Part shown: piece by piece, positions 41,691 to 42,505 of the stretch | Position numbering within the stretch: position 1 is the first letter of the stretch | Layout of the letters: each line of letters opens with the position of its first letter | Source: Eledone cirrhosa | Lineage: Eukaryota | Length of the DNA stretch: 64,000 nucleotides | NCBI GenBank assembly: GCA_964016885.1 | Contig: OZ024743.1 | Span: forward strand, 45,880,001-45,944,000 | Direction: 5' to 3' | Notes under the pieces: model-generated | What the model saw: the letters and a program-made list of their open reading frames with translations, nothing else | Databases searched by the model: none | What the model was told of the DNA's origin: nothing | Position numbers and translations under genes: made by a program

Positions 41691-42505
41691 ATGAATTCTA
41701 ACAAGAATGAAACGCGTAGACTTACTTCCCTTGCTTTTATCGAGAATCTAATTGTAATACGTGACGTATTCTATTCTATAGCGATTAGGTCTTCAAAATG
41801 TTTATTATAAACATACAGAATATTTTCGAATATTCTATGTCTATATTCACATATATATCGCTATTTCAGAGCATTTATTCCAATTTCTAATTTCTGCCGG
41901 ACCGGCAACCGCTCTTTCAAACCAGTTCCTGTACACAGCTAAGTATTCTATAAGTCTCTAGCTGTGTCATTCTCGATAAAAGCACTGGATATGTAGTCCT
42001 GATGAATTCTAACAAGAATGAAACGCGTAGACTTACTTCCCTTGCTTTTATCGAGAATCTAATTGTAATACGTGACGTATTCTATTCTATAGCGATTAGG
42101 TCTTCAAAATGTTTATTATAAACATACAGAATATTTTCGAATATTCTATGTCTATATTCACATATATATCGCTATTTCAGAGCATTTATTCCAATTTCTA
42201 ATTTCTGCCGGACCGGCAACCGCTCTTTCAAACCAGTTCCTGTACACAGCTAAGTATTCTATAAGTCTCTAGCTGTGTCATTCTCGATAAAAGCACTGGA
42301 TATGTAGTCCTGATGAATTCTAACAAGAATGAAACGCGTAGACTTACTTCCCTTGCTTTTATCGAGAATCTAATTGTAATACGTGACGTATTCTATTCTA
42401 TAGCGATTAGGTCTTCAAAATGTTTATTATAAACATACAGAATATTTTCGAATATTCTATGTCTATATTCACATATATATCGCTATTTCAGAGCATTTAT
42501 TCCAA
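41691..42505 (+). repeat. Second retrozyme-like array, 311-bp monomer x ~2.6
   Basis: ATGAATTCTAAC occurs at 41691, 42002 and 42313. Same family as 12292-14979 and flanked by (TA)n. Confidence 0.95.
41993..42036 (+). ncRNA. Minimal type I hammerhead; second full copy at 42304-42347
   Basis: GTAGTC-CTGATGA-ATTCT-AACA-AGAAT-GAAA-CGCG-TA-GACtTAC. Confidence 0.9.

Follow-up and report, generated by a model that had tools for sequence, protein, structure and literature searches.

Results

Two arrays of one repeat family in the window

The window analysed here, a stretch of 64,000 nucleotides of Eledone cirrhosa DNA, holds two arrays of one short repeat family. Array 2 (41691..42506, plus strand) consists of 2.63 identical retrozyme units of 311 bp; when the unit is numbered from the first base past a predicted ribozyme cut (phase 1 = 42030), the array starts at phase 284 and ends at phase 166. 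It lies between a left (TA)n target tract (41664..41690) and a right (AT)n target tract (42507..43032), to neither of which a strand is assigned. Array 1 is composed of a minus-strand arm of 7.26 units of 310 bp (12292..14544) joined head-to-head to a plus-strand arm of 1.4 units (14546..14979), between (AT)n tracts at 12267..12291 on the left and 14980..15072 on the right (strand not assigned). The outer end of the plus-strand arm falls at phase 166, hereafter the long end, and that of the minus-strand arm at phase 131, the short end. The monomer length of 311 bp in the original prediction holds for array 2; the unit of array 1 measures 310 bp.

As predicted, each array is homogeneous: at period 311 array 2 shows zero mismatches, and array 1 has only 4 single-unit changes within about 2.7 kb. 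The two monomers differ from each other at exactly 4 sites, all located inside a type I hammerhead, in keeping with the claim that differences are confined to the ribozyme. For array 2 versus array 1, these are position N7 (CTGATGA versus CTGAAGA), position 10.1 (A-U versus U.U), loop II (AACA versus AATA) and stem I, where 1 nt is inserted. The core is kept, the 16 invariant core and stem III positions being identical in both monomers.

The plus arms of both arrays finish with TTATTCCAAT followed by (AT)n, at 14979 and 42506, and their shared terminus reads TTCCAAT up to the first AT. The identical 3' junction noticed at first is thus real, with the second position shifted from the 42505 originally given, a base that is blurred by AT microhomology. 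The minus-strand arm of array 1 stops elsewhere, at a second fixed end that had been overlooked and lies 35 nt upstream (12292). With simple repeats masked, the flanks of arrays 1 and 2 have no sequence in common, so the two loci are not one segmental duplication. In array 2, the interval between the short end and the long end forms a 35-nt 'tail' (42472..42506, plus strand). At the 5' junction (41686..41696, plus strand), the 5 bases past the TA tract fit either the array start or a 5-nt stub of a short-end arm, although such a stub, spotted post hoc, is mimicked by chance at 7 of the 311 start phases. We infer that array 2 is a case in which the short-end arm was lost or amounts to merely a 5-base stub.

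A hammerhead motif in each unit

Each repeat unit carries a type I hammerhead motif in the order CUGANGA, 5-bp stem II, GAAA, a 2-bp palindromic stem III (ACGCGU), GUA, and a stem I with a 16-bp rod. The first copy in array 2 (41969..42058, plus strand) has its core CUGAUGA at 41999-42005 and a predicted cut after GUA, at 42029/42030. A second complete copy lies at 42280..42369 (plus strand), with a predicted cut at 42340/42341 on the basis of the period-311 identity. The ribozyme region folds with z = -6.0 (the array 2 copy) and -5.4, and the predicted circle of the monomer is self-paired (z = -4.6). A search of Rfam at the gathering score gave no hammerhead match, so the ribozyme call is founded on the core sequence and these folds. 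Position 10.1-11.1 is occupied by an A-U pair or, in 44 of 66 insertions, by U.U, whereas the covered part of one study describes G10.1-C11.1 as highly conserved and short palindromic helix III motifs as active in the form of dimers (PMC4209133). Given this departure from G-C, and since a 2026 preprint (Li, Clavereau, Pollet; 10.64898/2026.07.22.740005) describes, in the portion covered, cleavage in only 1 of 9 Xenopus retrozyme dimers, cleavage is unsafe to assume here.

Variation is concentrated in the 43-nt ribozyme region, which holds 142 of the 174 fixed variant occurrences (8 of 26 distinct sites). None of the 26 sites falls on the 16 core positions, but about 1.3 would be expected there and the deficit is not significant; core conservation was therefore rejected as proof of selection. 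At paired sites, fixed variants keep pairing in a ratio of 8:5, versus 7:24 for single-unit variants (p = 0.019).

Judged by its sequence, the repeat is a non-LTR retrozyme in the sense of Cervera and de la Pena 2020 (PMC7229834): it forms tandem 310/311-bp units with a GC content of 0.34 that are non-coding by eye, with a hammerhead in each. It thereby resembles the animal non-LTR retrozymes characterised in the covered parts of that paper and of the 2026 preprint, which consist of tandem non-coding units of 150-450 bp, each with a type I hammerhead, have a GC content under 50% (here 34%), are dispersed in high copy, give a self-paired predicted circle and co-exist with Penelope-like elements (PLEs). 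The insertions contain repeat units only, with no RT/GIY-YIG ORF, and the repeat is a passenger, not an autonomous PLE. A plant LTR retrozyme (LTRs, type III hammerhead, PBS, PPT, 4-bp TSD) was rejected on the type I topology, the tandem units and the lack of an LTR layout. The 310-nt unit closes on itself in 3 of 4 sequencing runs of unknown kind; a tandem DNA repeat gives the same result, which therefore says nothing about circles or expression. The runs X4, X5 and X6, which carry the labels of other organisms, contain one 310-nt unit each, closing on itself, at an identity of at least 99%, through contamination, a related species or RNA.

Insertions across the genome and their two fixed ends

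Copies of the family in the 3.0-Gb genome were counted with exact sequence patterns, using reversed patterns as a control. An internal 21-mer has 16,764 exact copies, dispersed among unrelated flanks, and the stem I variant of array 2 has 1,396. The exact long-end junction occurs 1,021 times (both this pattern and the 21-mer gave 0 in the reversed control), which extends to the whole genome the junction shared by the two loci of the window. The short-end junction pattern has 1,205 copies, a number that is overstated because a C132T haplotype also matches in internal units. As 11 of 16 unselected loci match the long-end junction pattern, we estimate about 1,500 insertions, or about 5 Mb. In nearly every case, an insertion is made up of two arms placed back to back, one of which stops at the long and the other at the short fixed end.

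We analysed 80 regions of one contig (C1), comprising 16 unselected regions, 62 chosen by one junction and 2 by haplotype; selection by one junction leaves the other end free. Together with the window, they provide 84 insertions: 68 complete two-arm insertions, 3 two-arm insertions interrupted by a region edge or gap, and 13 single-arm insertions, 3 of which are interrupted in the same way. Without exception, the 68 complete two-arm insertions are head-to-head and combine a long with a short end, with no instance of two long or two short ends, and the same holds for 13/13 two-arm insertions in the 16 unselected loci. The long end lies at phase 164-173, mostly 166, and the short end at phase 127-140, mostly 131 or 140, the main long and short ends being 35 nt apart. 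Exactly the long end seen in the window was found in 12 of the 16 loci picked regardless of ends, against 1/311 per end if ends were random, so that 3' ends are non-random as anticipated. The single preferred priming site of the original prediction has become two: the sites are indeed fixed, but there is one for each arm. Among single-arm insertions, one (L151) carries a 19-nt stub of the opposite end, and the eight other complete cases besides array 2 have at most 3 letters of it.

The long-end arm is the longer one in 35 of 69 insertions, and arm lengths are uncorrelated (rho 0.18). Since either arm may be longer and the lengths are uncorrelated, one arm did not arise from the other by fold-back copying. 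Fold-back, in which a long-end-primed cDNA copies itself into an inverted arm, would directly account for the haplotype identity of arms reported below, and two inner joints do fall within a 16-bp internal palindrome. However, the second arm is the longer in about half of the cases whichever is counted first, and its outer end is a different fixed site. This reading is already largely refuted by the arm lengths, and we consider it very improbable.

Outer ends lie in (TA)n of at least four repeats in 132 of 138 cases, a count to be read with the fact that a TA junction had served to select 62 of the 80 regions; yet TA is likewise present at the outer ends of 14 of the 16 unselected loci. Target site duplications are unreadable inside (TA)n, as is likewise noted in the covered part of PMC8557442 (Craig et al. 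2021). At the short end the RNA reads ACAUAUAUAU, with which a (TA)n primer is able to pair at 9 of 10 positions, and at the long end AT is the only match to the (TA)n target. The footprint of PLE insertions, an inverted 5'-truncated copy with a one-sided tail of 30-40 nt, is present in 68/68 two-arm insertions.

C132T corresponds to the change that priming at the short end would write at the junction, and it is fixed throughout the arrays of five loci (L069, L132, L141, L165 and L168). These loci represent four different haplotype backgrounds, through either recurrent mutation or recycled junction copies.

Haplotypes link the arms of an insertion

Haplotypes were established for 66 insertions, 4 of 70 being left out for having too few units. 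There are 26 fixed haplotypes, with a mean difference of 2.7 sites and a chance identity of 0.089. No fixed difference separates the arms of any of the 65 two-arm insertions. Fourteen variants that each belong to a single insertion of the sample are fixed there in both arms, over as many as 21 units. Variants confined to one unit are infrequent (3.9e-4 per base), and L150, L164 and L169 contain arms whose 16-22 full units agree in every letter. Haplotypes thus show that both arms, and usually all units, of an insertion come from one source. The original prediction of one template RNA per array agrees with this sharing between arms, copying from a single RNA per insertion being our own inference from it.

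Two RNAs, one per subunit of a PLE enzyme, might instead have furnished the arms, with the shared haplotype due to one source locus prevailing within the germ cell concerned or to inter-arm conversion. Inverted repeats are able to pair and convert, arm lengths are independent, and in L122 a variant is out of register between arms. Conversely, no arm-discordant fixed difference exists in 65 two-arm insertions with 26 haplotypes, and 49 one-arm variants persist in the doubly covered span versus a handful that are shared, so that inter-arm conversion is not thorough. A two-RNA origin therefore appears unlikely to us.

In 6 of the 66 insertions, a variant occupies several but not all units. In-register partial variants are common to both arms in L135, L145 and L162 (in L162, a three-site block in units 1-2), L078 has an out-of-register variant in units 2 and 12, as L122 has between its arms, and scattered variants occur in L112 (one arm). 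Beyond these six, variants are also scattered in L077 and in L139, where a two-site variant recurs in 6 of 28 units. A further case, L157, was dismissed as an artefact of the internal palindrome. Partial-unit variants (L135, L145, L162, L122, L078, L112, L077, L139) do not agree with a pure monomer circle. The in-register sharing fits either a linear template of mixed units on which both primings fell in one unit, or inter-arm conversion at a later time.

Recurrent variants in the longest arrays (L139, L077 and L112) speak for another reading, in which only one or two monomers were retrotransposed and then grew locally by unequal crossing-over or slippage, a scheme with no need for a rolling-circle step. 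Against it, private variants are fixed over up to 21 units in both arms, the arms of L150, L164 and L169 are without a single difference, single-unit variants have mostly not spread, and arms shorter than a monomer, unable to seed tandem growth, are nevertheless paired with long arms. We regard local growth as the origin of the arrays as decidedly improbable. The preference for retrotransposition over unequal crossing-over in the original prediction thus gains from the fixed 3' junctions, the unrelated flanks and the within- versus between-insertion contrast in a larger sample; it falls short for the few long arrays just named, whose recurrent variants give some role to local exchange or to a mixed linear template. 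Retrotransposition with preferred priming is supported as the best reading of the junction, flank and homogeneity data. The arrays were likely born multimeric, and long ones may later have been reshuffled locally.

Inner joints

Across the repeat unit, the 130 inner ends have a uniform distribution (Kolmogorov-Smirnov p = 0.42), and just 1 of the 130 lies within 5 nt of the predicted cut site. The 5' ends therefore do not accumulate at that site, and copying passes through it. Overlaps are seen at 36 of the 65 inner joints and inserted bases at 19, the other 10 being blunt. The ends are joined with microhomology: overlaps of at least 2 nt occur in 28 of the 46 joints without inserted bases versus 18% expected (p about 1e-10). 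Long foreign inserts are present at two inner joints (L112 and L165); that of L112 places 272 bp of unrelated sequence between the arms.

Autonomous Penelope-like elements and a sister family

A scan of the genome for GIY-YIG endonucleases returned 10,596 candidates, of which 150 were scored and 50 loci examined. These 50 are mostly of Neptune type, with a CX2-5CxxC linker and minimal hammerheads. Two young families are of particular interest. P1 has many copies at 96-99% amino acid identity and a frame of 1,167 codons (L251:4188-7688), for which Pfam gave no match at 0.001; its two ends are 58 nt apart, and long and short ends are combined in 12/12 clear two-ended copies (L253 and L266 being ambiguous). 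N5, a Neptune family (L173), has a 1,096-codon frame with an RVT_1 match; its ends are 38 nt apart and combine long with short in 6/6. At the long end, N5 and the retrozyme both finish CATTT..TCCAAT, the best agreement among five families compared. The likeness spans about 25 nt around the long end, is equalled by 132 of 3,000 shuffles (p about 0.04) and is not common to the sister retrozyme family; no extended match between N5 and the monomer was found beyond it at N5 loci. The 50 endonuclease loci, the P1 loci and the N5 loci included no autonomous PLE that carries the monomer sequence. The best candidate partner, put forward tentatively and as less likely than not, is N5 (L173), a young Neptune-type family with an intact ORF.

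That the arrays are an ordinary satellite spread by segmental duplication, or an assembly artefact of chimeric fold-back reads, could be entertained given that head-to-head repeats in TA tracts are difficult to assemble. This is hardly credible in view of the unrelated flanks, the fixed asymmetric ends, haplotypes that are particular to each locus, and the fact that unrelated PLE families, with tails of 35, 38 and 58 nt, follow the same rule.

The sister retrozyme family has a unit of 314 bp that is 66% identical, and 1,687 pattern matches, a few of which belong to the 310-bp family. With the pattern common to the sister family, only non-coding copies were seen in the 30 loci read, among the matches listed. 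The sister family (L082:2425-2870; L191-L220) is older and has a hammerhead with a longer stem III, arms that are head-to-head, and the same two ends. A third short head-to-head hammerhead element lies in TA at L180:9000-9210; its core and stem II nearly match the 310-bp family and its stem III is different.

Discussion

A probable Penelope-like route of insertion

We think it probable that this non-LTR retrozyme is inserted by the RT/GIY-YIG endonuclease of a PLE, with both cut strands of a (TA)n target priming on the same RNA. Mobilisation by a PLE is supported because the autonomous families P1 and N5 obey the same long and short rule. An array would first be transcribed, and its RNA would serve either self-cleaved and circularised, which we hold to be marginally probable, or as an uncut linear multimer, a lesser but serious possibility; both may occur. 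The PLE protein, probably a dimer, would then bind near phases 130-170. The 2-nt AT match would let one cut strand prime at phase 166. Priming by the other strand would take place at phase 131-140, a stretch with which (TA)n can pair at 9 of 10 positions. Both cDNAs would pass through several units and the ribozyme cut site and stop at random, after which their 3' ends would be joined and the second strands filled in. A more specific version, in which an enzyme dimer primes both (TA)n strands on one 310-nt circular RNA with two RTs rolling round it, is quite possible, if on balance a little short of probable. If this is true, the arrays would directly document, at the level of the genome, that animal retrozymes undergo rolling-circle reverse transcription, and the inverted pLTR and 'tail' of PLEs would be explained as the obligatory one-long, one-short product of twin priming.

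In LINE-1 twin priming, opposite target strands prime twice, giving an inverted 5' part and a microhomology joint; the position of the second priming varies, and the first cDNA ends close by. Both retrozyme sites, in contrast, are fixed, and both cDNAs span the same sequence.

Closer parallels exist among PLEs with an endonuclease (EN+), especially the Neptune clade. The covered parts of PMC8557442 describe PLEs with an inverted 5'-truncated copy, a tail often at one end only and a (TA)n bias. The retrozyme shares with them the inverted truncated copy, the one-sided tail of 30-40 nt, the (TA)n target (as for Neptune and Naiad) and a hammerhead with a short palindromic stem III. It differs from EN+ PLEs in the absence of an ORF, in a short unit repeated up to 28 times or more per arm, and in showing no extended match to a PLE pLTR among the families compared. 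Chlamys PLEs such as MRC1 are likewise non-autonomous passengers with head-to-tail multicopy insertions in microsatellites, but, in what is covered of PMC8557442 and PMC9977147, belong to another clade, target (C)n, have no canonical hammerhead and have 3' ends in common with their partners. A biochemical precedent is PAc, a Poseidon element of Anolis (PMC11167929; Frangieh et al. 2024). According to the covered sections of that study, its protein, a predicted dimer, cuts and extends both strands in vitro, two internal RT starts bound a tail of 30-40 nt, and uncut RNA can act as template. The retrozyme resembles PAc in the AT-rich target and, on our reading, in the two internal starts bounding a tail and the cutting and extension of both strands; it may likewise use uncut RNA as template. 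However, the start site of PAc is the same for top and bottom strand, so that the strict one-of-each rule is not predicted by it; retrozyme start sites are split strictly one per arm, and the short-end site pairs at 9 of 10 positions with the target.

Rolling reverse transcription by PLEs was already proposed in PMC7229834 and PMC4209133, as far as their covered portions go, and the 2026 preprint (10.64898/2026.07.22.740005) adds, in its covered portion, co-occurrence of retrozymes and PLEs and pLTR similarity. In the same portion, its authors tend to favour local amplification through unequal crossover, unlike the arrays described here, which appear to be born multimeric. Head-to-head arms, fixed 3' ends and (TA)n targeting of retrozymes are undescribed in the portions of PMC7229834 and of the preprint that we cover. 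Our literature search found no paper on head-to-head retrozyme arrays, PLE twin priming or a strict one-of-each rule; older PLE reviews (Evgen'ev & Arkhipova 2005, Arkhipova 2006) may already treat the geometry. The inverted copy and one-sided tail of PLEs are known (PMC8557442, in part), and their application to retrozymes and the strict one-of-each rule appear new relative to these sources.

Retrozymes and PLEs had previously been linked by pLTR similarity and by their co-occurrence. The family described here is very young, with an estimated 1,500 or so insertions; it shows the PLE footprint without exception in the two-arm insertions examined, and provides a large, young and clean record of the chemistry by which PLEs insert. 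Two matters become open to direct testing: whether a PLE dimer primes twice in an asymmetric manner, and whether the RNA template is circular or linear and uncut. The family also argues that 'satellites' of this kind can arise as long arrays in a single event.

Other repeats in the same tracts

The TA tract with array 2 splits a LINE-like element (40300-41030 and 43221-43772 of the window, both minus strand), whose left part has by eye an open AP-endonuclease-like frame. A 50-bp piece of this flank (40983-41030) returns inverted past the first TA tract (41502-41552). Short TA-flanked pieces of other repeats are stacked in the same tracts, at 41565-41660, 43033-43172 and 15194-15445. The first matches sequence adjoining a P1 element (L223), and the second matches L180:7630-7770 and the insert in the inner joint of L165.
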